Shown here: positions 1,021-53,032 of the stretch, piece by piece | Layout of the letters: each line of letters starts with the position of its first letter | Position numbering within the stretch: the stretch's first letter is position 1 | Assembly (NCBI GenBank): GCA_016869175.1 | Contig: VGEV01000001.1 | Coordinates: 1,476 to 65,475 of the forward strand | Direction: 5' to 3' | Source of the DNA: Alphaproteobacteria bacterium | GTDB lineage: Bacteria; Pseudomonadota; Alphaproteobacteria; GCA-2731375 | DNA length: 64,000 nucleotides | Made by a program: the position numbers and the translations under genes | Notes under the pieces: generated by a model | Told to the model about the DNA's origin: nothing | The model's database searches: none | Seen by the model: the letters and a program-made list of their open reading frames with translations, nothing else

Positions 1021-2385
1021 ATGCAAGTCCAGGAAACGTTGAACGAAGGTCTGAAGCGCGAGTACCAGGTGACGATCGCCGCCGCGGATATCGAGGGGCG
1101 GGTGGCCGGTCGGCTGGGCGAACTCGCGCAAACCGCCCGCTTGCCGGGCTTCCGGCCGGGCAAGGCGCCGGTCTCGCTGTTGCGCAAGATGCACGGCCGG
1201 GCGGTGCTGGGCGAAGTGCTGCAACAGACCCTCAACGAAAGCACCGCCAAGGCACTGCAGGAGCGCGAACTGCGGCCGGCGCTGCAGCCCAAGGTGGAGA
1301 TTCTGAAGTTCTCCGACGGCGCCGATCTGGAATACAAGGTGAGCATCGAACTGCTGCCGGACGTCGACCCTGGGGATTTCGCCGAGCTGGAGATCGAGCG
1401 CTTGGTCGCGGCGGTGAGCGAGGAAGAGGTCAGTCAGCGGCTGCAGCGGCTGGCCGACGACATGAAGAGCTACGTCGCCGCGGCCGAGGGCCAGGGCGCG
1501 CAGAACGGCGACCGTTTGACGCTGGATTTCGTCGGCTCGCTGGACGGCAAGGCCTTCTCCGGCGGCAGTGCGACCGACTATGCCCTGGTCTTGGGCGGTG
1601 GCGGTTTCGTGCCCGGCTTCGAGGACTCGGTGGTCGGCTTGAAGGCGGGCGAGAGCAGGCGCTTTCCGCTGAGCTTTCCGGCGGACTACGCGGCCAAGAA
1701 CCTGGCGGGCAAGGCCGTCGAGTTCGCCGTGACGGTGAAGAAGGTCGAGGTGGCGTTGCCGACCGCCGTGGACGATGGCCTGGCGGAAAAGCTGGGGCTG
1801 AAGACGCTGGACGAACTGCGCGGCACGGTGCAGCAGGCGGTGAGCCGCGAGCATGCGATGCTGTCGCGGGCGCGGACCAAGCGGCGGTTGCTGGATGCGT
1901 TGGCCGAGAGGCATCGGTTCGCGGTGCCGGAAGGCATGGTGGAAATGGAGTTCCAAGGCATCTGGCAGCAGTTCGAAGCGGAAATGAAGCGCCAGGGCAA
2001 GGCCGAGGCAGAATGGGAGAAGCCAGTCGAGGCGCTGAAGGCGGAGTACTGGGCGATCGCCGAGCGGCGGGTGCGACTGGGCCTGCTGCTGTCCGAGGTC
2101 GGCCGCCGGCAGAACCTGCAGGTCACGCAAGAGGAGCTGAATCGGGCGATCGCCGAACAGGCCCGTCGGTTCCCGGGTCAGGAACAGCGGGTGTTCCAGT
2201 TCTACCAGCAGAACCAGGAGGCGCAGACGCAGTTGAAGGCACCGATCCTGGAGGACAAGGTCTGCGATTTTATCCTGGAGATGGCGAAGGTTAGCGAGCG
2301 CGAGGTGGCCTTGGAGGAGCTTTTGCGCGAGCCCGACGAGCCGGCTGCGCCGCTGCCAGTGCCCGATCCGCAAGGCAATGGTTGA
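1021..2385 (+). CDS. tig: Trigger factor (ribosome-associated chaperone / PPIase)
   Basis: [20 protein letters not shown]-terminus is typical of trigger factor. Length is about 454 aa. Conserved tig-clpP-clpX-lon synteny. The ORF-track start at 886 overlaps the tRNA and is spurious. Confidence 0.93.
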
Positions 2386-2411
2386 GGGGCCGGCCGCCCT
2401 ATATTAATCAT

Positions 2412-2432
2412 GCGCCAGTCTGGCGCTTCCTT
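2412..2432 (+). terminator. Candidate hairpin terminator/attenuator between tig and clpP (gcgcca-gtc-tggcgc then ttcctt)
   Basis: 6-bp GC stem with 3-nt loop followed by a weak U-rich tract. Inferred from sequence only. Confidence 0.3.
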
Positions 2433-2468
2433 AGCGGACACCCGTCCGCCGCAAGAAACGGTAACGGT

Positions 2469-3125
2469 ATGGCGACGCCCCACGACATCTACATGAACAT
2501 GCTGGTCCCGATGGTCATCGAACAGACCAATCGCGGCGAACGTGCGTATGATATCTATTCCCGTTTGCTAAAGGAAAGAATCATTTTTGTCGTTGGTCCG
2601 ATCAACGACGCCGTCTCCAGTTTGGTGACCGCCCAGCTATTGTTCCTTGAGGCGGAAAACCCGAGCAAAGACATTGCGATGTACATCAACTCTCCGGGCG
2701 GAATCGTTACCTCGGGCTTGGCGATCTATGATACGATGCAGTATGTCCGGCCGGACGTGTCGACGCTCTGTGTCGGTCAGGCGGCCTCGATGGGCTCGCT
2801 GCTGATGGCGGCCGGTGCGGCCGGCAAGCGCTATGCCCTGCCGAATGCCCGGATCATGGTCCACCAGCCCTCTGGCGGTTTCCAGGGGCAGGCCACCGAT
2901 ATCGAGATCCACGCCCGCGAAATCCTGGAGTTGCGCGAGCGGCTCAACCGTATCTATGTGACACATACGGGACAGAGCCTGGAGGCGATCGAGCGGACCA
3001 TGGAGCGCGATACCTTCCTCTCCGCCGAAAAGGCCAAGGAATTCGGCATTATCGATGAAGTGGTCGTGCATCGGCCGCGGAGCGAGGAGGCGGTTGCCGC
3101 CGCCGGCGGCGGCAACGGCCGCTAG
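2469..3125 (+). CDS. clpP: ATP-dependent Clp protease proteolytic subunit ClpP
   Basis: [29 protein letters not shown] and [14 protein letters not shown] (active-site Ser region). Alternative start at MNM (2496). Confidence 0.95.
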
Positions 3126-3285
3126 GGCCGGGGGAAGGGTTTTACGAAGTGTTGAACGGGCCGCCGATACCGTGGTCGTATGGCGGGCGGGGTAGCACCC
3201 GGGGCGCGAGCGGGCGGCCCGGCCCGGCCGGGATCGAACGGCAAGGTCTTTGCACAGTCCGCCACAAGGCGGATACGGGGTGTCC

Positions 3286-4551
3286 ATGACGAAGCTGAGC
3301 GGCAGCGATCCCAAGAACACGCTTTACTGCTCCTTCTGCGGCAAGAGCCAGCACGAGGTGCGAAAGCTGATCGCCGGCCCGACGGTGTTCATTTGCGATG
3401 AATGCGTCGAGCTGTGCATGGACATCATTCGTGAGGAGAACAAGAGCTCGCTGGTCCGCCCGAAGGACGGGGTGCCGTCTCCGCGCGACATCTGCAAGGT
3501 GCTGGACGATTACGTGATTGGCCAGGCCCATGCCAAGCGGGTGTTGGCGGTTGCGGTGCACAACCACTACAAGCGGCTGCACAACGGCACCAAGAGCAAC
3601 GACGTCGAGATCCAGAAGTCCAACATCTTGCTGATCGGGCCGACCGGCTGTGGCAAGACCCTGTTGGCGCAGACCTTGGCGCGGGTCATCGACGTGCCGT
3701 TCACCATGGCCGACGCCACCACGCTGACCGAAGCCGGCTATGTCGGCGAGGATGTTGAGAACATCATCCTGCGGCTGCTGCAAGCCGCCGACTACAATGT
3801 CGAGCGGGCGCAGCGCGGCATCGTCTATATCGACGAGGTCGACAAGATCAGCCGCAAGTCGGACCACCCCTCAATCACTCGCGACGTATCGGGCGAGGGC
3901 GTGCAGCAGGCGCTGCTCAAGATCATGGAGGGCACCGTTGCCAGCGTGCCGCCGCAGGGCGGCCGCAAGCACCCGCAGCAGGAGTTCTTGCAGGTCGACA
4001 CCACCAACATCCTGTTCATTTGCGGCGGCGCGTTCTCCGGGCTCGACAAGCTCATCTCCGCGCGCGGTCGCGGCAGCTCGATCGGTTTTGGTGCCGATGT
4101 GCGGGCCCCCGACGAGGGCTCGATCGGCGAAATCCTGCAGCGGATCGAGCCCGAGGATCTGCTGCGCTTCGGTCTCATCCCGGAATTCGTCGGACGCCTG
4201 CCGGTGGTGGCGACGCTGACCGACTTGAGCGAGGACGCGCTGGTCGAGATCCTGGTCAAGCCGAAAAACGCCCTGTCGAAGCAGTATCAGCGCCTGTTGG
4301 AGATGGAGAGCTGCCGGCTAACCTTTACCGAGGACGCGCTGCGCGGCATCGCGCGCAAGGCGATCCTGCGCAAGACCGGAGCCCGCGGCTTGCGTTCGAT
4401 CATGGAAGGCATCCTGCTGAATACCATGTATGAGCTGCCTTCGGCCGAAGGCGTTGAGGAAGTGGTGGTCAACGCCGAGGTGGTTCAGAACGGCAGCAGG
4501 CCGCTCTATATATACTCCGACCGACGCGAGGATGTCGGCACCGGAGCCTGA
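3286..4551 (+). CDS. clpX: ATP-dependent Clp protease ATP-binding subunit ClpX
   Basis: Zinc-finger [27 protein letters not shown]. Walker A GPTGCGKT. Start ATG at 3286 within ORF 3250-4551. Confidence 0.96.
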
Positions 4552-4658: not shown

Positions 4659-7067
<2,409 letters not shown>

Positions 7068-7085
7068 GCCATGGTGCTTGTCACC

Positions 7086-7114
7086 CGCCCGGAATACGGG
7101 CGTGGTTTGGCTTT
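7086..7114 (+). terminator. Candidate lon terminator hairpin (cgcccg-gaata-cgggcg followed by tggtttggcttt)
   Basis: 6-bp GC stem with 5-nt loop and an interrupted T-rich tract 19 nt after the lon stop. Confidence 0.35.
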
Positions 7115-7224
7115 GACGCTGTCAGCGGGCGACGCCTAAAGTGATCGTTGGTCGTGCGTGACCCGGCTGTCACAACGAGGTTCCAACAACCCGGGTGGGG
7201 CGCGTTTGTGTCGAGGGAGCCAAG

Positions 7225-7497
7225 ATGAACAAGAACGATCTGGTCGCCGCGGTGGCGGATGCCGCCAGCTTGCCCAAGAACGATGCCCAGCGTGCTGTCG
7301 ACGCGGTGTTCGACGTACTGACCGGGGCCTTGAAGAAAGGCGAAGAGATCCGTTTGGTCGGATTTGGCACCTTCGTTGTAAAGGCGCGCGAGGCGAGCGA
7401 AGGACGCAACCCGCGCACCGGCGAGACGATCCGCATCCCGGCCTCGCGTCAGGTCAAGTTCCGCGCCGGCAAGGGCTTGAAGGACGAAGTCAACTGA
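7225..7497 (+). CDS. hupB: DNA-binding protein HU
   Basis: MNKNDLVAAVA...GFGTFVVKAREASEGRNPRTGETIRIPA is a canonical HU fold signature. 90 aa. Confidence 0.95.
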   Translation: MNKNDLVAAVADAASLPKNDAQRAVDAVFDVLTGALKKGEEIRLVGFGTFVVKAREASEGRNPRTGETIRIPASRQVKFRAGKGLKDEVN

Positions 7498-7547
7498 ACC
7501 GACGCGGCTTGCGCTGCCGGCCCACTGCGGGCAGTCTCGGTCGGCCG

Positions 7548-7622
7548 GGCGGTTAGCTCAGCCGGTAGAGCATCTCGTTTACACCGAGAGGGTCGGCGGT
7601 TCGATCCCGTCACCGCCCACCA
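7548..7622 (+). tRNA. tRNA-Val (anticodon TAC)
   Basis: gggcggttagctcagccggtagagc...ctcgtttacaccgag...ggttcgatccc..caccgcccacca. Acceptor gggcggt/accgccc. Confidence 0.85.
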
Positions 7623-7677
7623 GCGTTAGCAGAGACAGGTGGATTGAGCAGCCGCGCGCGATCGGCCGCGCGCGCGT

Positions 7678-9213
7678 TCAGGTTGCGCTTCCGCGGGCGC
7701 CAGCGGCGGCGAGCAGCGTTGCGAACAGGCTCGCGTCGTTGACGATGCGCGGCACCTTGTGCTGGCCGCCCAGTTGCCCGCGCGCGCGCATCCAGCCGGC
7801 GAAGAAGCCGGGGGCGACGGCCAGCACCTGGGGCGCGCCCAGGCCGAAGCCACCGCCGCGATGGCCGCGATAGTCGTCGTTTGCGTCGCTGAGATGAGTG
7901 TCGAGCGTCGCGGCGAACCGGACGATGGCATCGCTCGGCTGGGCGGTTGCGAACTCGACCACATAGACGTGGTGGCTGAGCGCACCGGGCGTCGCGGGCA
8001 GGCGGGCGCCCAGTGCATAGTCGGTGACATCGGCGCCGATCGCGCCGGCGGCGGCGGCAATGGCGGCCTCCACCTCCTCGACGATCAAGTGCTCGCCAAA
8101 GGCCGACATCGTCTGGCCGACGCGGCCGGTGATGGCCAGGCGCGGCGGGTCCCGCGAGACGAGGCGCACCGTGTCGCCCAGCAGATAACTCCAGGCCCCG
8201 GCGCAGGTGCTGAGCGCAAGCGCGTAATCGACGCCGAGTTCCGCGTCGCCGAGCCAGTGCCGGCGGGGCGAGGCGGCGGCGAGCTCGGCGCTCGGCACGA
8301 ATTCATAGAACAGGCCGTTGTCGAGGTTGAGGCGCAGGCCTTCGCCCGGGCCGCGGTCGGCGCTGGCGATGAAGCCTTCGCTGGCCGGGTAGACTTCGCG
8401 ATAGTCCACGTGGCTGCCCAGCAATTCGCCAAAGCGGTGGCGATAGGGCCTGAAGTCAACGCCGCCGTGCAGCAGCAGTTCGAGCTTGGGAAACGGCGCC
8501 GGCGGCTGGCCGCGGGCCTGGCGCAGCGCGCGCATGCGGTCGAGCAGGATCAGCAACCAGCTTGGCGTGCCGGTCAGAATGCGGATATCGCGATTGAGCG
8601 CGGCGTTGGCCAGTCGCTCGATCTTGATGTCCCAGTCCTTGAGCAGCGCCAGCCCGCGGTCGGGGAAACCGAATGGCCGCGCCCAGCGGGGCGTCGTCGC
8701 GACCGCGATCCCCGAGAGGTCGCCCGAGGCGACGCCCGGTGCCTCGGGGGTCAGGTTGCTGGCCCCGCCCAGCATGAAGGCGCGCCCGGCGAAGGCGCGC
8801 GATCGGGGGCGCGCCAGCAGGTGATGCACGATGACGTCGAGGCCGGCGCGGACGTTCGAACGGCACATTGCGGCGGTCACCGGTATGTATTTGCTGCGTC
8901 CGCTGGTGGTGCCGGAGGTGACGGCGAAAAACGGCACCAGGCCCGGCCAGGAAACATCGACCAGGCGCGGGAAGGCGGGCTGCCACCAGTCGCGCCAGAA
9001 GTCCTCGTAGCGACGGAGTGGCACGCGAGCCAGGTAGTCGGGCACCTCGCGGATGGCGTCGAAGCCATGCTCCCGGCCGAAGCGCGTCGCGGTCGCCTGG
9101 CCGACCAGCTTGAGGAGCTGCCGGCGCTGGCTGGCGACCGCGTGAAGCGCGGCCAACTGCCGTCCGCGCCAGGCGGCGTAGAGCCGGAAAAGGGGGGTGG
9201 CGTCCGGCCGCAT
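7678..9213 (-). CDS. GH3-family acyl-acid amido synthetase (adenylate-forming, auxin-responsive GH3 / IaaL-like superfamily)
   Basis: GH3 motif 1 TSGTTSGRSKYIPVT, motif 2 VYPASEGFIA, motif 3 YLLGDTVRL. 511 aa, no signal peptide. Start codon lies 6 nt downstream of the acylase stop, so the two are likely co-transcribed. Confidence 0.75.
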   Translation of the reverse strand: MRPDATPLFRLYAAWRGRQLAALHAVASQRRQLLKLVGQATATRFGREHGFDAIREVPDYLARVPLRRYEDFWRDWWQPAFPRLVDVSWPGLVPFFAVTSGTTSGRSKYIPVTAAMCRSNVRAGLDVIVHHLLARPRSRAFAGRAFMLGGASNLTPEAPGVASGDLSGIAVATTPRWARPFGFPDRGLALLKDWDIKIERLANAALNRDIRILTGTPSWLLILLDRMRALRQARGQPPAPFPKLELLLHGGVDFRPYRHRFGELLGSHVDYREVYPASEGFIASADRGPGEGLRLNLDNGLFYEFVPSAELAAASPRRHWLGDAELGVDYALALSTCAGAWSYLLGDTVRLVSRDPPRLAITGRVGQTMSAFGEHLIVEEVEAAIAAAAGAIGADVTDYALGARLPATPGALSHHVYVVEFATAQPSDAIVRFAATLDTHLSDANDDYRGHRGGGFGLGAPQVLAVAPGFFAGWMRARGQLGGQHKVPRIVNDASLFATLLAAAGARGSAT

Positions 9214-9219
9214 GCCGGC

Positions 9220-11481
9220 TCAGCGGCGCGCCGGTTTGAGCCGGGTGAGCAGCGGGAACTCGCTCGCCACCCGTTCCGCCGTCAGCGGCATGCGCACATA
9301 TTGGCCGGCGCGCCAGAGCAAGATCTGGTCGGCGAAATTGGCCGAGCCGAGCCAGCCGTCGTTGCCGCCATAGAGCACGAACCAGTTGGCGTCGGGGTCG
9401 CTCATGTCGGATATATGCCGCGTCTGCGACCCATAGCGGGCGGCGTGGCGCTCACGCACCAGGTCGTGGGCGGTTTTCATCGCGGTCTCGCGGCTGCCGC
9501 CGGCTGGCGCGTCGCCATAGACGAACAACTCGCCGATGACCGGCAGCAGCGACAGCAGATGCGCGACCTTCAGGCGGTGCATGTCGCCCCAGGTGGCGAA
9601 GCGGGCCGCGTCGCGCGCCGCCGCCGCGACCGCCCGCCGCAGCAGCGCCTCGCGCGCCGCCGCCGGACGGGCATCGATATCGCCGATCAGGAACTCGGTC
9701 AGGTAGTTCCATTGCTGCGCCTGGGCCGGCAGCTCGGCCGGCCGTTCGGCCTGGAACAGGTCCAGGGTCAGGTGATAGAGTAGTGCCTCGAAGGCAACCG
9801 CCCCGTTCGCGCTCGCGGCGTAATCACCATCCCAACCCCTGAGCCGGGCAATGAAGGCGGCCTCGCCCGGCCCGCCCGGGAGCGCCTCAAGCCGGTCGAG
9901 CAGGGCGCGGCAAAGCTGGGCCGCGTCCTGCGAGAGCGTGTCGGTTTGCAATGCGATCAAGTCCGCAACCGTCACCCGCGGCCGCGCCGCCAGGAATTGC
10001 TGTAGCCGGCGCACGCGCTCGTCGTCGCTGAAGAAGAAGCCGACGGGCACGGCGGTGTCGGGTCGGTTGTTGGCGGAGGCGAGGAAGCCTTCGGTCAGGT
10101 TGAGCGAATAGGGCAGGTCGAGCGCGCCCAGCCGGCCGTTCCAGGCGGCATTGGGATCGTCCGGCCGTTGCACCAGGTCGGGCTCCACCAGCTTGCGGCG
10201 GCCGGGCAGCCTGGCGGCCATGAGTTGGCCGATATTGCCCGCGCGATCGGCGAACAGGATGTTCTGCGCCGAGACGCCGAAGCTGGCGAAGGACCGGCGG
10301 AACTCCTCCGGCGTGGTGGCCCGGGCGGCGCCCAGCATGGCGGTGATCTCGTCGCTTGGCTCGTGCCCGACCCAGCGCAGCGCCAGCCGCTCAGCCGCCC
10401 CGGTGCCCAGCAGACCGGCATCGGAGATCAGCGGCCCCAGCGGACTTTGCCGCAGCGGGCGCTCGGCGGCGAACCAGAAACGCCGCGCGATGCGGGTGCG
10501 GCGTTCGGTGATGGCGTCGGCCGGCAGGGTCGAGACATCGAACAGATCGCTGGCGGCGGCGCGCATGTTGGTGCCACCCCAGGCAAAATGCGACGAGCAG
10601 CCGACCGCCACCACCGGCAGGCCGGGCGGCATCAGGCCGACAATCTGGAAACTGGGCGAACGCAGCCCGGCGATCAGCCAGAGGTTCGGCAAGGACAGCC
10701 CCAGATGCGGGTCGTTGGCGAGCAGGGCGCCGCCGCTGGCGCTGCGGGTCGGCGCCACCGCGACGCTGTTGGAGCCGCTCTTGCCGAATCCGTTCAACAG
10801 ATCGTTGAGCAGGCTTTGCCGGCTGTCGGCGCGGAAGCTCACGGCGGCGTTGGCGCCGGCCTGCCGGGAACGCCGCCACCACTCGGCGAAGTCCGGCCGC
10901 CCGCGTTCGCGCAGGATGGCGAAATAGGCGAACCAGTTGACATCGGCGCCGGCCAGACGCCCGATGCCAATCAGGTCCTCCGCCGTCCACGGCTCGGCGC
11001 GCAGGCCCAGCAGAGCGAATTCCGGCGGTGGCGCCGGCGCCGCGCGCTGATAGGCGTTCAGGCCCTCGACGAAGGCGTCGAGCCAAGCCCGGCTCTCCGC
11101 CGGCATCGCGGCCAGGATCGGCTTGGCGGCGCGGCCGAGGTCGAGGATGCGCAAGGCATGGTCGACCTCGGTGGCGAAGGAACCGGCCAGTTCGGACAGC
11201 CGGCCTTGCACCACGCGCTTGGCGGCGGCCAATTGCGCGCCCCGCAGGTGGGCATGGACCAGGCCCAGCGCCAGTGCCAGATCGGGATCGGTTTGCGCTT
11301 CGATATAAGGCACTTGGCGCGCGTTCCAGCGAATGGTGACGGTGCGTTCCAGACCCGGCACGACGGTGGGCATGGCACGCAGCCGCTCCTCGGTGCCGCG
11401 CGGGCTGGGGTTGAGCGCGGCACAGCCCGACAGCGCGAACGCCAGCACGGCAAGGCCGGCGCGTCGGTGCGAACTGGTCAT
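9220..11481 (-). CDS. Penicillin amidase / acyl-homoserine-lactone acylase family protein (peptidase S45, Ntn-hydrolase), predicted lipoprotein
   Basis: Lipobox LAFALSGC in the signal peptide. Autoprocessing and nucleophile region GSNSVAVAP...GGALLANDPHLGLSLPNLW is typical of the PGA/PvdQ/QuiP family. 753 aa. Confidence 0.82.
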   Translation of the reverse strand: MTSSHRRAGLAVLAFALSGCAALNPSPRGTEERLRAMPTVVPGLERTVTIRWNARQVPYIEAQTDPDLALALGLVHAHLRGAQLAAAKRVVQGRLSELAGSFATEVDHALRILDLGRAAKPILAAMPAESRAWLDAFVEGLNAYQRAAPAPPPEFALLGLRAEPWTAEDLIGIGRLAGADVNWFAYFAILRERGRPDFAEWWRRSRQAGANAAVSFRADSRQSLLNDLLNGFGKSGSNSVAVAPTRSASGGALLANDPHLGLSLPNLWLIAGLRSPSFQIVGLMPPGLPVVAVGCSSHFAWGGTNMRAAASDLFDVSTLPADAITERRTRIARRFWFAAERPLRQSPLGPLISDAGLLGTGAAERLALRWVGHEPSDEITAMLGAARATTPEEFRRSFASFGVSAQNILFADRAGNIGQLMAARLPGRRKLVEPDLVQRPDDPNAAWNGRLGALDLPYSLNLTEGFLASANNRPDTAVPVGFFFSDDERVRRLQQFLAARPRVTVADLIALQTDTLSQDAAQLCRALLDRLEALPGGPGEAAFIARLRGWDGDYAASANGAVAFEALLYHLTLDLFQAERPAELPAQAQQWNYLTEFLIGDIDARPAAAREALLRRAVAAAARDAARFATWGDMHRLKVAHLLSLLPVIGELFVYGDAPAGGSRETAMKTAHDLVRERHAARYGSQTRHISDMSDPDANWFVLYGGNDGWLGSANFADQILLWRAGQYVRMPLTAERVASEFPLLTRLKPARR

Positions 11482-11559
11482 GAATGCCCCCTTGGCTCAA
11501 GCCCCGATCGCCCGCACGACCAATGGAAAGTTAATCTTGTTCGGCCAGGATGAAAGACA

Positions 11560-11573
11560 AGCGGCATGCCGCT
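11560..11573. promoter_or_regulatory. 14-bp perfect palindrome AGCGGCATGCCGCT in the upstream region of the acylase-GH3 operon (candidate operator)
   Basis: Reverse complement is identical to the sequence. Located about 80-90 bp upstream of the acylase start codon (minus strand). Not part of tRNA-Asp. Confidence 0.3.
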
Positions 11574-11601
11574 GCCGTTCCCCGCGGATGCGCGGATGTC
11601 C

Positions 11602-11631
11602 TTGACTTGGCGCTTGCCGGGACCCTACAAA
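11602..11631 (+). promoter_or_regulatory. Sigma-70-like promoter for tRNA-Asp (and probably read-through into nuo): -35 TTGACT, 18-nt spacer, -10 TACAAA
   Basis: TTGACT at 11602-11607 and TACAAA at 11626-11631. tRNA starts at 11644. Confidence 0.45.
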
Positions 11632-11643
11632 CGGCCTCGCGCC

Positions 11644-11720
11644 GGGGGCGTAGCTCAGTCGGTTAGAGCGCCGGCCTGTCACGCCGGAGGTCGCGGGTTC
11701 GAGCCCCGTCGCTCCCGCCA
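11644..11720 (+). tRNA. tRNA-Asp (anticodon GTC)
   Basis: gggggcgtagctcagtcggttagagcgccggcctgtcacgccggaggtcgcgggttcgagccccgtcgctcccgcca, near-identical in architecture to E. coli tRNA-Asp. Confidence 0.88.
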
Positions 11721-15091: not shown

Positions 15092-16371
15092 TGCTGCTCG
15101 ACCAGGACCGCATCTTCACCAACCTCTATGGCTACCAGCATTGGGGCCTGGCGGCGGCGCGCAAGCGCGGCGACTGGGATGGTACCAAGGCGATCATGGA
15201 CAAGGGCCAGGACTGGATCGTCGAGGAGGTGAAGAAGTCAGGCTTGCGCGGCCGTGGCGGCGCCGGCTTTCCGACCGGCCTGAAATGGTCGTTCATGCCC
15301 AAGCAGTCGGATGGCCGGCCGTCCTACCTGGTGGTGAACGCCGACGAAGGCGAGCCCGGCACCTGCAAGGACCGCGACATGCTGCGCCACGACCCGCACA
15401 AGCTGGTCGAAGGCTGCCTGCTGGCGGGCTATGCCATGCGCGCCGTCGCCGCCTATATCTACATCCGCGGCGAGTTCCACAATGAGGCTGACATCCTGGA
15501 AGCCGCCATCGCCGAGGCCTACGAAGCCGGCCTGATCGGCAAGAATGCCTGTGGCTCGGGTTACGACTTCGATGTCTTCGTGCATCGCGGCGCCGGCGCC
15601 TATATCTGCGGCGAGGAGATGGCGCTGATCGAAAGCCTGGAAGGCAAGAAGGGTCAGCCGCGGCTGAAGCCACCGTTCCCGGCCAACCAGGGCGTCTGGG
15701 GCTGTCCGACCACGGTCAACAACGTCGAAAGCATCGCCGTGGCGCCAACCATCTTGCGCCGCGGCGCCTCATGGTTCGCAGGCTTCGGGCGGCCCAACAA
15801 CACCGGCACCAAGGTCTTCTGCATCTCCGGCCACGTCAACAAGCCGTGCAATGTCGAGGAGGCGATGAGCATCCCGATGCGGGAACTCATCGACAAGCAT
15901 GCCGGCGGGGTGCGCGGCGGCTGGGACAACCTGTTGGCGGTGATCCCGGGCGGCGCCTCGGTGCCGGTCATCCCGAAGTCGATCTGCGATTCCGTGCTGA
16001 TGGATTTCGATGCGTTGCGCGAGGTGAAGTCGGGCCTGGGCACCGCGGCGGTCATGGTCATGGACAAGTCGACCGACATCGTCAAGGCGATTGCCCGGCT
16101 GTCGAAATTCTACATGCACGAGAGTTGCGGCCAGTGCACGCCCTGCCGCGAAGGCACCGGCTGGATGTGGCGGGTGATGGAGCGGCTGGTCAAGGGCCGG
16201 GCGGAGGTGTCGGAGATCGACATGCTGCTCGACGTGACCTATCAGGTCGAAGGACATACGATCTGCGCGCTCGGCGACGCGGCGGCCTGGCCGATCCAAG
16301 GCCTGATCCGGCATTTCCGGCCCGAGCTGGAGCGCCGCATCCTGGACTACCGCCGCGCCAAGGCGGCGTGA
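15091..16371 (+). CDS. nuoF: NADH-quinone oxidoreductase subunit F (51 kDa, FMN/NADH binding)
   Basis: [15 protein letters not shown] and [15 protein letters not shown] [4Fe-4S] motif. 426 aa. The long upstream extension of the ORF-track frame is an artefact. Confidence 0.95.
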
Positions 16372-50218: not shown

Positions 50219-51022
50219 ATGGCAACGACCATCCACCCAACCGCCGTGGTCGACCGTAAGGCCGAACTGGGCGATGGCGTGATGATCGGCCCGTTCTGCG
50301 TGGTCGGACCGCATGTCCAGCTGGGCGCGGACGTGCAACTGTTGAGCCACGTGGTGGTCGACGGCCGCACCAGCATCGGTCCGGGCGGCCGGCTATTCGC
50401 CTTTGCCGCGGTCGGCTTGCCGCCGCAGGACATGAAATACCGGGGCGAACCCTCGCGGCTGACGATCGGTGCCAACGTGGTGGTGCGCGAGCACGCGACG
50501 CTGCATCCCGGCACCGCCGACGGCCGCATGCTGACCGAGGTCGGCGACAATTGTCTGTTGATGGCGGGCGCGCATGTCGCGCATGACAGCCAGATTGGCA
50601 ACCATGTCATCCTGGTCAACCAGGCCACCCTGGGCGGCCATGTGCGGATCGACGATCACGCCATCCTGGGCGGCCTGTCGGCGGTGCACCAGTTCGTGCG
50701 GATCGGTAAGCACGCCATGGTCGGCGGCATGTCGGGGGTGGAACAGGACGTCATTCCGTATGGTTCGGTCATGGGCAACCGGGCCCACCTGAGCGGCCTC
50801 AACCTGGTCGGTCTCAAGCGGCGCGGCTTTCCGCGCGACGCGATCCATCAATTGCGGCGTGTCTATCGCTTGCTGTTCGCCGAGGAAGGCACCATGCAGG
50901 AACGGATCACCGACGTGGCGCAGATGTTCCCCGACAACCCGCTGGTCGCCGACATTGTCGAATTCCTGCGCGGCGAGTCGCTGCGTTCGTTCTGTCAGCC
51001 CAAGATCGAGCGTGCGGCCTAA
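50219..51022 (+). CDS. lpxA: Acyl-[ACP]--UDP-N-acetylglucosamine O-acyltransferase
   Basis: IHPTAVVDRKAELGDGVMIGPFCVVGPHV... Confidence 0.93.
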   Translation: MATTIHPTAVVDRKAELGDGVMIGPFCVVGPHVQLGADVQLLSHVVVDGRTSIGPGGRLFAFAAVGLPPQDMKYRGEPSRLTIGANVVVREHATLHPGTADGRMLTEVGDNCLLMAGAHVAHDSQIGNHVILVNQATLGGHVRIDDHAILGGLSAVHQFVRIGKHAMVGGMSGVEQDVIPYGSVMGNRAHLSGLNLVGLKRRGFPRDAIHQLRRVYRLLFAEEGTMQERITDVAQMFPDNPLVADIVEFLRGESLRSFCQPKIERAA

Positions 51023-51842
51023 GCTCGGCATTCTGGCGGGCCGCGGCGAACTGCCAGGGCAACTGGTCCGGAGTTGCCGCAAGGAGGGGCGCCCGTTCTT
51101 CGTCGTCGCGTTCAGGGGCGAGACCGACCCTGCCACGCTGGACGACGCACCGCATGCCTGGGTCGAGGTTTCCGCCGTCGGCCGGGTGCTGGCGCTGTTG
51201 CGCGAGGCGGGCTGCCAGGAGCTCTGCCTGATCGGCCCGGTCGGCCGTCCCGATCTTAGCCGTCTCAGACCAGACAGGCAGGGCATCCGGTTGTTGCCGC
51301 GCATCGCCGCCGCCTTGCGCCGGGGCGACGATGCGCTGATGGCGGTGCTGGTGCGCTTCCTGGAAGAGGAGGGCTTTCGCGTGGTTGGCGCCGAGATGGT
51401 GGCCGACCAGTTGGCCGCGCCGGCCGGCCGGATCGGCCGCCTCTCGCCGTCGCAACGCGACCGGGCCGATATCGCGCGCGCGGTTGAGGTGGTGCGCGCG
51501 CTCGGCCGCCTGGATATCGGGCAGGCGGCCGTGGTGCGCGAGGGGCGCGTGCTGGCGGTGGAGGCGGCCGAGGGCACCGATGCGCTGCTGGCGCGATTGT
51601 TGCCCTGGCGCCCGGCGAGCCCTTCCGGGGTCTTGGTGAAGTTGCCCAAACCCCAGCAGGAACGCCGGGCGGATTTGCCGACCCTGGGTTTGCCGACGGT
51701 CGCCGGGGCCATCGCCGCCGGCCTGTCCGGCATTGCCTGCGAAGCGGGCGGCACGCTGTTGACCGATCGCGCGGCCCTGGCCGCCGCGGCCGACCAGGGC
51801 GGCCTGTTCCTGTATGGCCTCGGCGCGGGCGACGGCCTGTGA
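51012..51842 (+). CDS. lpxI: UDP-2,3-diacylglucosamine pyrophosphatase LpxI (DUF1009)
   Basis: GTG start. [12 protein letters not shown] is the LpxI N-terminal motif. Sits between lpxA and lpxB as in alphaproteobacteria. Confidence 0.8.
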
Positions 51843-53032
51843 CCGCCGACGCCCGCCATGTGATGCTGGTGGCGGGCGAGGCTTCGGGCGATGCCTTGGG
51901 CGCGGAACTCATGACGGCGCTTCTCGGCACGGGCCTGCCGATCCGGTTTTCCGGCGTTGGCGGGCCGGCGATGACCGCCGCCGGTCTCGCCAGCCTGTTT
52001 CCCATGCGCGAGCTGTCGGTGATGGGGCTGCTGGAAGTGCTGCCCCGGGCGCGCGGCCTGCTGCGCCGCATCGCCGAGACCGCGGCCCATGTCCAGGCGA
52101 TGCGGCCCGACATTCTTGTCACCATCGACTCGCCGGGCTTCACCTTCCGCCTGGCGCGGCGGCTGCAAGGGGCCGGTCTGCCGCTGGTCCACTATGTCGC
52201 GCCGCAAGTCTGGGCCTGGCGGCCAGGCCGGGCGAAGCGCATCGCACCGCTGTTCGATCATCTGCTGGCCTTGCTGCCGTTCGAGCCGCCGCTGTTCAGC
52301 CAGCACGGCCTGCCAAGCACCTTCGTCGGACATCCGGTGACGGAGCGGCTGGCGCGGCCGGCGGATGGCGCGGCATTTCGCCGGGAGCTGGCACTGGCGG
52401 CCGACGCGCCGCTGTTGCTGCTGTTGCCGGGCAGCCGGGCGGCCGAGGTTGGCCGGCTGTTGCCCGTGCTGCTCGCGGCCACCCGCCACTTGCAACGGCA
52501 ACTGGTCGGCCTGCGAACCGTTGTCGTCGCCGCACAACCGGTCGAAGCGCTGTTGCGTCAACGGCTGGCGGCCGAGCATCCGTCGCCCCTGCTGTTGCCG
52601 GCGGCGCGTCGACTGGAAGCGTTCGCCGCCGCCGCGGGCGGGCCCGGCGCGGCTCTCGCCGCCTCCGGCACAGCCACCCTGGAATTGGCCCTGGCCGGCG
52701 TGCCCAGCATCGTGACCTACCGCGCGCAGCCGGTTACCGCGCTGATCGCGCGCCGGCTGATCCGGCTCGACTATGTCGGCCTGCCCAACATCCTGTTGGG
52801 CAAGACCGTGCTGCCGGAACTGCTGCAACAGGATTGCCGGGCCGACCTGCTGACAGCGGCCGCCCACGACCTTCTGGCCAAACCAGCCTCGGCCGAGGCG
52901 CAACGTCAAGCCACCCGGCGGTTGTGGGCCATGCTGCGACCGCCCGGTCCGCCGCCTTCTGTCCGTGCCGCCGAGGTCGTGCTAGAGGTGATGCGAGCCG
53001 GTCGCAGACCGCGTCAAGGGAGCCCCCGATGA
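51839..53032 (+). CDS. lpxB: Lipid-A-disaccharide synthase
   Basis: [17 protein letters not shown]... Confidence 0.92.

Follow-up and report, generated by a model that had tools for sequence, protein, structure and literature searches.

Pairing of a predicted exported S45-family acylase with an OlsH-like GH3 ligase, found between two tRNA genes of an alphaproteobacterium and widely in Proteobacteria

The stretch of DNA analyzed here (referred to below as the window) comprises 64,000 nucleotides (64 kb) of contig VGEV01000001.1 from an alphaproteobacterium (assembly GCA_016869175.1; positions 1,476 to 65,475 of the forward strand). Between its genes for tRNA-Val and tRNA-Asp lies a space of 4,021 nucleotides (positions 7623 to 11643 of the window) that is occupied by two minus-strand open reading frames (ORFs), the first encoding a precursor of the S45 or penicillin-amidase family of N-terminal nucleophile (Ntn) hydrolases, here called the acylase, and the second encoding a GH3-like ligase. 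A preliminary description of the locus had reported some 4 kb of minus-strand coding DNA in exactly this space, with a gap of 6 nucleotides between the genes, and the sequence of the junction (Table 1) bears this out. A good Shine-Dalgarno sequence is found only at the acylase gene, the GH3 start codon being without a strong ribosome-binding site of its own, and the two genes most probably form a genuine two-gene operon. Both encoded proteins are new members of known families, and their combination is that of an OlsH-type ligase with a periplasmic S45 amidase as its partner. The rest of the window consists of housekeeping genes.

That the second gene encodes a member of the GH3 family, as had been proposed, was borne out by three Pfam models (PF03321, PF23571, and PF23572), which the protein matched at 84.1, 37.1, and 63.4 bits (gathering cutoff, 23.6 bits). 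All three of the GH3 motif patterns that we looked for (S/T-SGT-x-x-G-x-x-K, Y-x-x-SE, and G-x-x-x-x-x-x-GD) are present, in the form of TSGTTSGRSK, YPASE, and a third motif containing YLLGD. The ligase has no signal peptide and is predicted to be cytoplasmic. Its AlphaFold2 model (predicted local distance difference test score, 81.4) shows a GH3 fold of two domains, akin to that of ANL enzymes; the top 23 Foldseek matches in the PDB were plant GH3 proteins, with template modeling scores of up to 0.76, and the next structural neighbors were PaaK-type ligases. In sequence, the ligase shares only 14 to 19% identity with the plant GH3 structures, compared to 45 to 49% with planctomycete proteins encoded beside the O-acyltransferase OlsI.

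The latter comparison leads to OlsH, which was described in 2025 as an ATP-dependent ligase of fatty acids and ornithine, with free C14-C18 fatty acids, ATP/Mg, and ornithine as its substrates; the enzyme carries the motif TSGTTQGATK, lost its activity in an S115A mutant, and was inactive in living Escherichia coli, for which the authors blamed the scarcity of free fatty acid (PMC12493201). Against the NCBIfam model for this enzyme (NF052613, lyso-ornithine lipid synthetase equivalog), the ligase scored 559.6 bits (E = 6e-168), with a curated cutoff of 620 bits; this was its one strong match in NCBIfam. Calibration of the model on the loci that we fetched gave 690 to 938 bits for GH3 proteins with OlsI and OlsG as neighbors, 560 to 611 bits for the proteobacterial clade, and about 420 bits for Bacteroidota. 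In a distance tree, the proteobacterial proteins form a sister clade to the OlsI-linked planctomycete clade, and 117 of the 122 positions that are conserved in both clades are identical between them. The ligase shares with OlsH the motif variants YPxSE and GxWSxLxGD, and its S100 aligns with the essential S115 of OlsH. Because its score lies below the NF052613 cutoff, we do not assign the protein as a curated OlsH, and it is best described as probably OlsH-like in chemistry. Given its place in the sister clade of OlsH and its OlsH-type motifs, a fatty acyl substrate seems far more likely than auxin, a reading that is also made unattractive by the low identity to the plant enzymes. The protein is thus not of the IaaL or plant type, and among the substrates suggested earlier, an auxin or other aromatic signal is the least likely; an N-acyl amino acid or a fatty acid derived from an N-acylhomoserine lactone (AHL), also listed then, fits the kinship with OlsH. 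Within the 64-kb window, we found no OlsI-like gene and no ols-type or other aminolipid genes.

The first gene was likewise correctly placed by the preliminary description as encoding a lipoprotein of the penicillin-amidase family. The protein matches PF01804 (Penicil_amidase) over its full length (480.1 bits; residues 47 to 739 on model positions 1 to 674 of 675), starts with a signal peptide that ends in the lipobox LSGC, and contains the motif G/S237-N-S...NDPHL (the slash marks the start of the predicted beta chain). The lipobox cysteine recurs in 14 of 16 orthologues from genomes and, by the strict pattern [LVI][ASTVI][GAS]C, in 64 of 93 orthologues, and the acylase is predicted to be a lipoprotein. 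Its nucleophile, spacer, and Ntn alpha-beta-beta-alpha fold are intact: the G-S-N motif is invariant in all 16 orthologues, and Ser237 aligns with the first beta-chain residue in 4hsr, 1fm2, and 2wyb.

As to specificity, the closest solved relative is D-succinylase (7EA4), an N-acyl-amino-acid amidase, although identity to any solved S45 member is only 17 to 26%, and PvdQ, MacQ, and the penicillin G acylases lie farther away than D-succinylase and the cephalosporin acylases. The PvdQ equivalog model NF051460 (cutoff, 950 bits) gave a score of 33.2 bits that was confined to the N-terminal third of the protein, and the PvdQ chains scored 29 to 36 bits in phmmer, so that the sequence does not place the protein in the AHL-acylase branch, as proposed earlier. 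None of the NCBIfam subfamily models fits the acylase. At the positions of Arg beta24 and His beta57/beta70 of its relatives, which we take to be the cationic holders of an acidic acyl group (the histidine positions are those changed between 4hsr and 4hst), the acylase has an invariant Leu260, an alanine or a gap, and Asn305; we give this acyl-pocket argument low weight, and a review of the S45 family held no residue-level detail in its support. A heterodimeric "penicillin V acylase" from Streptomyces both hydrolyzes and forms N-lauroyl amino acids (PMC11511702).

Table 1. Features of the acylase-ligase locus (window positions)
Feature	Position	Strand	Remark
tRNA-Val (anticodon TAC), left boundary	7547..7622	+	ARAGORN
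55-nt spacer past GH3 stop codon; GC-rich stem, U-tract absent	7623..7677	-	sequence
GH3-like ligase gene	7678..9213	-	511 aa; second gene of operon
Motif 3, G339-AWSYLLGD-347	8173..8199	-	OlsH GMWSHLIGD; plant GLYRYRLGD
Motif 2, Y275-PASE-279	8377..8391	-	OlsH YPCSE; plant YGSSE
Nucleotide-binding motif 1, T99-SGTTSGRSK-108	8890..8919	-	OlsH TSGTTQGATK
6-nt junction GCCGGC	9214..9219	-	reads TGA-GCCGGC-ATG (acylase stop, GH3 start)
S45 (penicillin-amidase family) Ntn-hydrolase precursor	9220..11481	-	753 aa; signal peptide, alpha chain, spacer, beta chain
Ser237 codon, predicted beta-chain N-terminal nucleophile (G/SNS)	10771..10773	-	orthologue/structure alignment
Signal peptide with lipobox L17-S-G-C20, Ala at +2	11422..11481	-	translation; MTSSHRRAGLAVLAFA-LSGC20
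162-nt region upstream of acylase, presumed promoter carrier	11482..11643	-	no consensus promoter seen
Shine-Dalgarno AAGGGGG, 5 nt before acylase ATG	11487..11493	-	read from sequence
tRNA-Asp (anticodon GTC), right boundary, nuoA next	11644..11720	+	ARAGORN

The pairing of the two genes extends far beyond this organism. When 80 genome loci encoding GH3 relatives were searched with the acylase of the window, a codirectional, full-length orthologue (40 to 59% identity) directly preceded GH3 at 16 of about 26 proteobacterial loci and at none of the planctomycete or Bacteroidota loci examined. For the converse comparison, we collected 80 metagenomic loci with an acylase orthologue, of which 76 could be evaluated. 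Of these, 44 have GH3 directly downstream and codirectional, 3 have it adjacent in convergent orientation, and 6 have it within a few kilobases, which places it near the acylase in 53 of the 76. Carriers of the pair include Hypericibacter adhaerens, Inquilinus limosus, and Paracraurococcus lichenis, as well as metagenome-assembled genomes (MAGs) from the Micropepsaceae, Dongiaceae, and Acetobacteraceae; among cultured bacteria, it is also found in Indioceanicola profundi (on a 1.18-Mb chromid) and in Fodinicurvata sediminis. The carriers are planktonic freshwater, marine, compost, and sediment bacteria without a link to plants.

The genes flanking the pair are unrelated between loci. The junction between acylase and GH3 is a 4-nucleotide overlap in six genomes and otherwise ranges from -1 to 62 nucleotides, and pairwise identity among the acylases is correlated with that among the ligases (Mantel r = 0.62, p = 2e-4). 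Linked cases are spread over the entire proteobacterial GH3 clade of the distance tree, and unlinked acylases are limited to approximately three subclades, which argues for an ancestral association that has been lost on a few occasions; Allostella still has its acylase orthologue elsewhere in the genome. Between acylase-linked and unlinked GH3 proteins, no fixed sequence differences were found. The pair is thus a widespread module of the Alphaproteobacteria and a few other Proteobacteria, one that has persisted both vertically and horizontally. The coupling of an amide-forming with an amide-cleaving enzyme, first pointed out from the window alone, is thereby upheld by some 60 loci in unrelated contexts, with translational coupling, frequent start/stop overlaps, and correlated divergence. 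Calling the architecture unusual was correct only in part, since the pairing is widespread and it is the location between tRNA genes that is specific to the lineage.

Two loci of the comparison set (numbered L001 and onward) show irregular forms of the pair. In the long-read MAG OZ253470.1 (L020, positions 5598 to 9524), acylase and GH3 make up a single ORF of 1,308 aa without a stop codon at the junction and with an out-of-frame TAG there. This is either a real fusion, which would be odd for a lipoprotein and an ATP-dependent enzyme, or a long-read indel; as it was seen in this one MAG only and is topologically implausible, we did not accept an acylase-GH3 fusion protein. In an "Acidithiobacillus" MAG (L019, positions 1495 to 3771), the acylase orthologue has an in-frame stop after codon 106 and the downstream GH3 gene is intact; the acylase copy is possibly a pseudogene or the product of an assembly error.

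With regard to the insertion site, the two tRNA genes had been described as normally adjacent within a conserved lon-hupB-tRNA-Val-tRNA-Asp-nuoA order. Among the four relatives examined (the nearest of which have Lon proteins only about 80% identical to that of this organism), tRNA-Val follows hupB in all four. Rhodospirillum centenum and a relative with a genome of 7.3 Mb (loci L089 and L091) retain the full gene order, with distances of 518 and 469 nucleotides between tRNA-Val and tRNA-Asp and a small ORF in between. In the other two, unrelated genes follow tRNA-Val. The earlier statement is thus correct in part, the spacing being about 0.5 kb where both tRNA genes are kept. No tRNA gene accompanies the acylase-GH3 pair at 22 other loci, and the position between tRNA genes is thus specific to this lineage among those compared: what follows tRNA-Val varies between relatives, and in this lineage the module was inserted there. 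The same arrangement is carried by three independent metagenome contigs of the same organism. At 0.87 to 0.88, the GC content at third codon positions of both genes falls within the range of host genes (0.78 to 0.94), with an overall GC content for the region of 0.71 against 0.64 to 0.68 in the flanks. The window contains no integrase gene, and the locus has no att-like repeats, its only repeats being GC-rich ones that are due to chance. In the absence of an integrase and of direct repeats of a tRNA 3' end, and given the host-like third-position GC content, we rejected a tRNA-associated genomic island; "old, domesticated insertion," the wording of the preliminary description, is a fair one for a module without marks of mobility.

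Several details of these loci may be recorded here. The small ORFs between the tRNA genes (L089, 12101 to 12454; L091, 12236 to 12457) encode 73 to 117 aa, one with a weak match to Rap1a. At L088 and L090, tRNA-Asp and nuoA are replaced after tRNA-Val by unrelated genes (DctP plus a two-component system; PAS and DHDPS), and in L090 ARAGORN calls, without assigning it an identity, an 82-nucleotide tRNA-like gene (16089 to 16170) with a four-base anticodon (ccac). The contigs from metagenome assemblies of the same organism (L001 to L003) all end within the acylase gene, 387 to 433 nucleotides upstream of GH3, at breakpoints (window positions of approximately 9600 to 9665) close to a GC-rich 20-nucleotide repeat (9607 to 9626 and 9646 to 9665), which suggests either an assembly-breaking repeat or strain microdiversity. 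Elsewhere in the window, an 838-aa ORF without a Pfam match (50393 to 52909, minus strand) is an antisense shadow of fabZ-lpxA-lpxI-lpxB and not a gene.

All-against-all clustering of the neighbors, first of 37 and then of about 96 loci, revealed no third conserved component. It yielded only lineage-specific synteny, such as an ABC permease in 12 Acetobacterales-like loci and a FadD-like ligase in 5, along with short-chain dehydrogenases/reductases, miscellaneous housekeeping genes, and antisense shadow ORFs. Alpha/beta-hydrolases that adjoin the pair at some loci (L018, L020, L155/156, and L017/L009) were considered as candidates for OlsI and rejected, as none of them scored above 66 bits, whereas genuine planctomycete OlsI partners (434 to 440 bits) exceed the cutoff of 385 bits. 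In two of these cases, Inquilinus limosus (L017, 3054 to 5741) and Stella vacuolata (L009, 6409 to 8001), a gene for an alpha/beta-hydrolase of the dienelactone-hydrolase type abuts the module, lying 4 nucleotides before the acylase in the former and ending at the GH3 start in the latter; the two copies are 64% identical, and their sole NCBIfam match is a weak one to the AHL lactonase UilS (35.7 bits against 400). A gene resembling long-chain-fatty-acid-CoA (coenzyme A) ligases occupies the usual GH3 slot at L147 (2638 to 4449), 84 nucleotides past the acylase; at the related loci L130 (9655 to 11541) and L131 (9576 to 11423), such a gene lies 2.4 kb downstream, with GH3 still upstream of the acylase. 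In Fodinicurvata sediminis (L174, 11784 to 15416), an Mla-type lipid-trafficking ABC operon (MlaE/STAS, ATPase, MlaD, and an auxiliary lipoprotein) is convergent with GH3 and abuts it. Finally, two Dongiaceae loci (L006, 11570 to 12469; L007, 5015 to 5914) have a gene of the fatty-acid-desaturase family (PF00487) on the same strand, 49 nucleotides past GH3, with weak similarity to the models for the arginine hydroxylase GntB and the desaturase DesB.

Signals for expression were sought at the locus and across orthologues. A scan of the window for the sigma-70 consensus promoter gave no match, and a comparison of the upstream regions of 87 orthologues with shuffled sequences showed no enrichment of Pho box, sigma-54, or Fur motifs, the top k-mers being merely GC-rich. 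The stem in the spacer 3' of GH3 folds at -21.5 kcal/mol, which is no more stable than shuffled sequences (z = -0.01), and a terminator at this position is therefore not supported.

The preliminary description knew of no characterised system with this architecture, and the literature that we searched agrees, in that no paper joins GH3 with a penicillin amidase or acylase in a relevant sense, even though the ligase now has a characterised relative. That closest relative belongs to the OlsH-OlsI(-OlsG) system of planctomycetes such as Singulisphaera acidiphila (PMC12493201), with which the ligase shares the GH3 fold and the motif variants and, very probably, the ATP-dependent formation of an amide from an acid and an amino acid without CoA or acyl carrier protein (ACP). 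It differs from that system in falling below the curated threshold, in lacking both OlsI and OlsG, and in having an exported S45 amidase in place of OlsI as its partner. The solved S45 hydrolases (D-succinylase, glutaryl-7-aminocephalosporanic acid/cephalosporin, penicillin G, MacQ, and PvdQ) are distant from the acylase, which differs from them in its predicted lipoprotein anchor and, from D-succinylase and the glutaryl acylases in particular, in lacking the basic side chains that hold the carboxylate of a succinyl or glutaryl group; none of the characterised S45 members is encoded with a GH3 ligase.

More remote parallels exist for the division of labor between the compartments. In E. coli, the phenylacetate released by the periplasmic penicillin G acylase (pac) is passed on to PaaK, a cytoplasmic ligase, with PaaX as the regulator, so that here, too, a periplasmic S45 acylase frees an acid that a cytoplasmic adenylate-forming enzyme activates; in contrast to the present pair, that acid is aromatic and is converted to a CoA thioester for catabolism, and the genes, one of which encodes a PaaK-type ANL ligase, are coregulated rather than joined in one operon. 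In the PvdL/PvdQ case, a cytoplasmic adenylating step adds a fatty acid that a periplasmic S45 acylase later removes, but an assembly line of the nonribosomal peptide synthetase type and an exporter are required, neither of which is associated with the present pair, and PvdQ is distant in sequence. Plant GH3 proteins with ILR1/IAR3, and IaaL, resemble the module as synthetase/amidase pairs that set the level of an acyl-amino-acid conjugate with a GH3-fold synthetase; ILR1 and IAR3, however, are M20 metallopeptidases and not S45 enzymes, the plant synthetases and hydrolases are both intracellular, their genes are unclustered, and the acids are hormones. LplT-Aas lysophospholipid repair and FadL/FadD vectorial acylation are precedents for the salvage of envelope lipids, in which a cytoplasmic adenylate-forming enzyme reuses a fatty acid arising outside the inner membrane, albeit with other enzyme families and lipid classes and without an amidase.

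Starting from the gene families, the catalytic motifs, the locations that the signal sequences predict, and the conservation of the linkage, we tentatively favor, as something short of probable, an acylase-first shuttle for the salvage or remodeling of fatty-acyl amides of amino acids, which would be broken outside and rebuilt inside. The acylase, exported and self-cleaved at Ser237, would hydrolyze N-acyl amide bonds on the periplasmic side and release a fatty acid (and an amine) outside the inner membrane. The acid would then cross the membrane into the cytoplasm, where the ligase would adenylate the free carboxylic acid, likeliest a medium- or long-chain fatty acid, with ATP and attach it to an amino acid at the alpha-amino group, giving a new N-acyl amino acid; ornithine or a different basic amino acid is a possible acceptor. 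The substrate class common to both enzymes would be that of lipoamino acids, aminolipids or lyso-aminolipids, and possibly AHLs or lipopeptides, whether of the cell itself or of its surroundings, and the shuttle might at the same time supply the free fatty acid that an OlsH-type enzyme needs. This last point is one reason to prefer the order with the acylase first, as the synthetase is OlsH-like and free fatty acid was deemed limiting for OlsH in E. coli; the other is that the sole other recurrent occupant of the GH3 slot is a fatty-acid-CoA ligase. What we infer in this scheme is the kind of substrate, the order in which the enzymes act, and the benefit to the cell.

A number of observations weigh against this shuttle. 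The whole ligase clade scores below the OlsH cutoff (560 to 611 against 620 bits), and its acid or amino acid may for that reason differ from those of OlsH; the nearest solved relatives of the acylase take short dicarboxylic acyl groups, with the fatty-acyl enzymes PvdQ and MacQ being more distant; and the substrate assignments of both proteins are predictions from sequence. Breaking and then remaking the same type of bond costs ATP and would have to be justified. A transporter that could carry the amine or the product is missing from the module, and the 87 upstream regions share no regulatory motif, the Pho box included. Approximately 30 to 40% of the orthologues of each gene are unlinked, from which it follows that each can function without the other nearby, and the substitution of GH3 by a FadD-like gene comes down to essentially one locus (L147). 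Last, as there is no OlsI-type O-acyltransferase, the product would be a detergent-like single-chain lipid.

The same linkage evidence would also carry the reverse order, in which an N-acyl amino acid is first produced by the ligase and then flipped to face the periplasm, where the acylase removes or exchanges its acyl chain, be it for control of the level of a detergent-like lipid, for remodeling in the manner of the Lands cycle, or for an acylate-export-deacylate scheme like that of pyoverdine maturation by PvdL/PvdQ. PvdQ, a structural relative of the acylase and itself an S45 enzyme, removes a fatty acid that was placed in the cytoplasm by an adenylating domain, and the closest solved relative of the acylase hydrolyzes the very product class of the ligase, N-acyl amino acids. 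Nevertheless, we consider this order unlikely: a synthetase and a hydrolase of its own product on one mRNA would run a futile, ATP-consuming cycle unless regulation separated them, and no exporter, flippase, or tailoring genes are conserved beside the pair. In addition, the FadD-like gene in the GH3 slot of L147 cannot make a substrate for the acylase, which is why the acylase-first order fits better. A special case of the favored shuttle, in which an AHL acylase disposes of quorum signals and the ligase detoxifies or reuses the fatty acid, appears improbable in view of the low scores against both the PvdQ model and the PvdQ chains, of the absence of luxI/luxR from the window and from the recurrent neighbors, and of the UilS match, which stays far below its threshold.

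We give a smaller chance to a cycle of conjugation and hydrolysis of auxin-like or other aromatic acids, a bacterial counterpart of plant GH3 with ILR1-type amidohydrolases. The GH3 fold and mechanism are indeed common to the enzymes that conjugate indole-3-acetic acid and jasmonic acid, phenylacetyl amides are the preferred substrates of penicillin G acylases, and the next structural neighbors of the ligase were of the PaaK type; but the identities and the OlsH-type motifs point to the OlsI-linked clade and away from the plant enzymes, the penicillin G acylases are more distant from the acylase than D-succinylase and the cephalosporin acylases, and the carriers have no plant link and no auxin or phenylacetate pathway genes recurring near the pair. 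A slimmer chance again goes to the S45 protein being an acyltransferase that replaces OlsI and adds a second, ester-linked fatty acid to give an acyloxyacyl aminolipid. The acylase does sit in the slot upstream of GH3 that OlsI holds in planctomycetes, no OlsI orthologue accompanies the proteobacterial GH3, and Ntn acylases form acyl-enzymes and transfer the acyl group, for example, from methyl laurate in the case of the S. mobaraensis enzyme (PMC11511702). A periplasmic lipoprotein would, however, need an outward-flipped lyso-lipid and an extracytoplasmic acyl donor, lipid O-acylation is not known from any S45 enzyme, and a large number of GH3 genes in this clade lack a neighboring acylase, with no fixed differences setting them apart from the linked ones. 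The least probable of the readings is that the two genes are mere neighbors without a shared pathway, held together by inherited synteny or as a selfish, cotransferred pair. Each gene is also found alone, and the link between them is drawn from genomic evidence, but adjacency across families, orders, and even classes, with wholly different flanks, is hard to reconcile with chance company, as are the fixed gene order, the frequent overlaps, the correlated divergence, and the rearranged loci (convergent or a few kilobases apart) that still keep the genes near each other.

In the boldest reading, the acylase would be the first dedicated N-deacylase of aminolipids or lipoamino acids and would form, together with the ligase, a transmembrane cycle of deacylation and reacylation, a bacterial "Lands cycle" for amide-linked membrane lipids; in a more radical form, it would act as the missing O-acyltransferase of a fourth, OlsI-independent route to acyloxyacyl aminolipids. 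We put this forward as doubtful.

For the family, the finding means that the proteobacterial sister clade of OlsH has a conserved partner of its own, an exported S45 amidase instead of the O-acyltransferase OlsI. The OlsH paper (PMC12493201) and a 2026 review of ornithine lipids noted homologues in Rhodospirillales, Acetobacterales, and Acidithiobacillales without a partner or function, and what the homologues outside the planctomycetes make was left open by the discoverers (PMC12493201; PMC12971839). The pairing gives a concrete hypothesis both for the role of these homologues and for the origin of their free-fatty-acid substrate. It also makes the acylase a candidate for the breakdown of aminolipids or N-acyl amino acids, a topic on which a 2024 aminolipid review makes no mention of degradation, hydrolysis, or turnover. 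The searched literature held nothing usable on the polar lipids of the cultured carriers, several of which make the hypothesis directly testable. CoA-independent ligases and amidases for long-chain N-acyl amino acids are, moreover, wanted for the green synthesis of surfactants (PMC11511702). Should the cycle be real, it would let cells scavenge or remodel ornithine-type lipids, which are plentiful in phosphorus-poor waters, without CoA or ACP.

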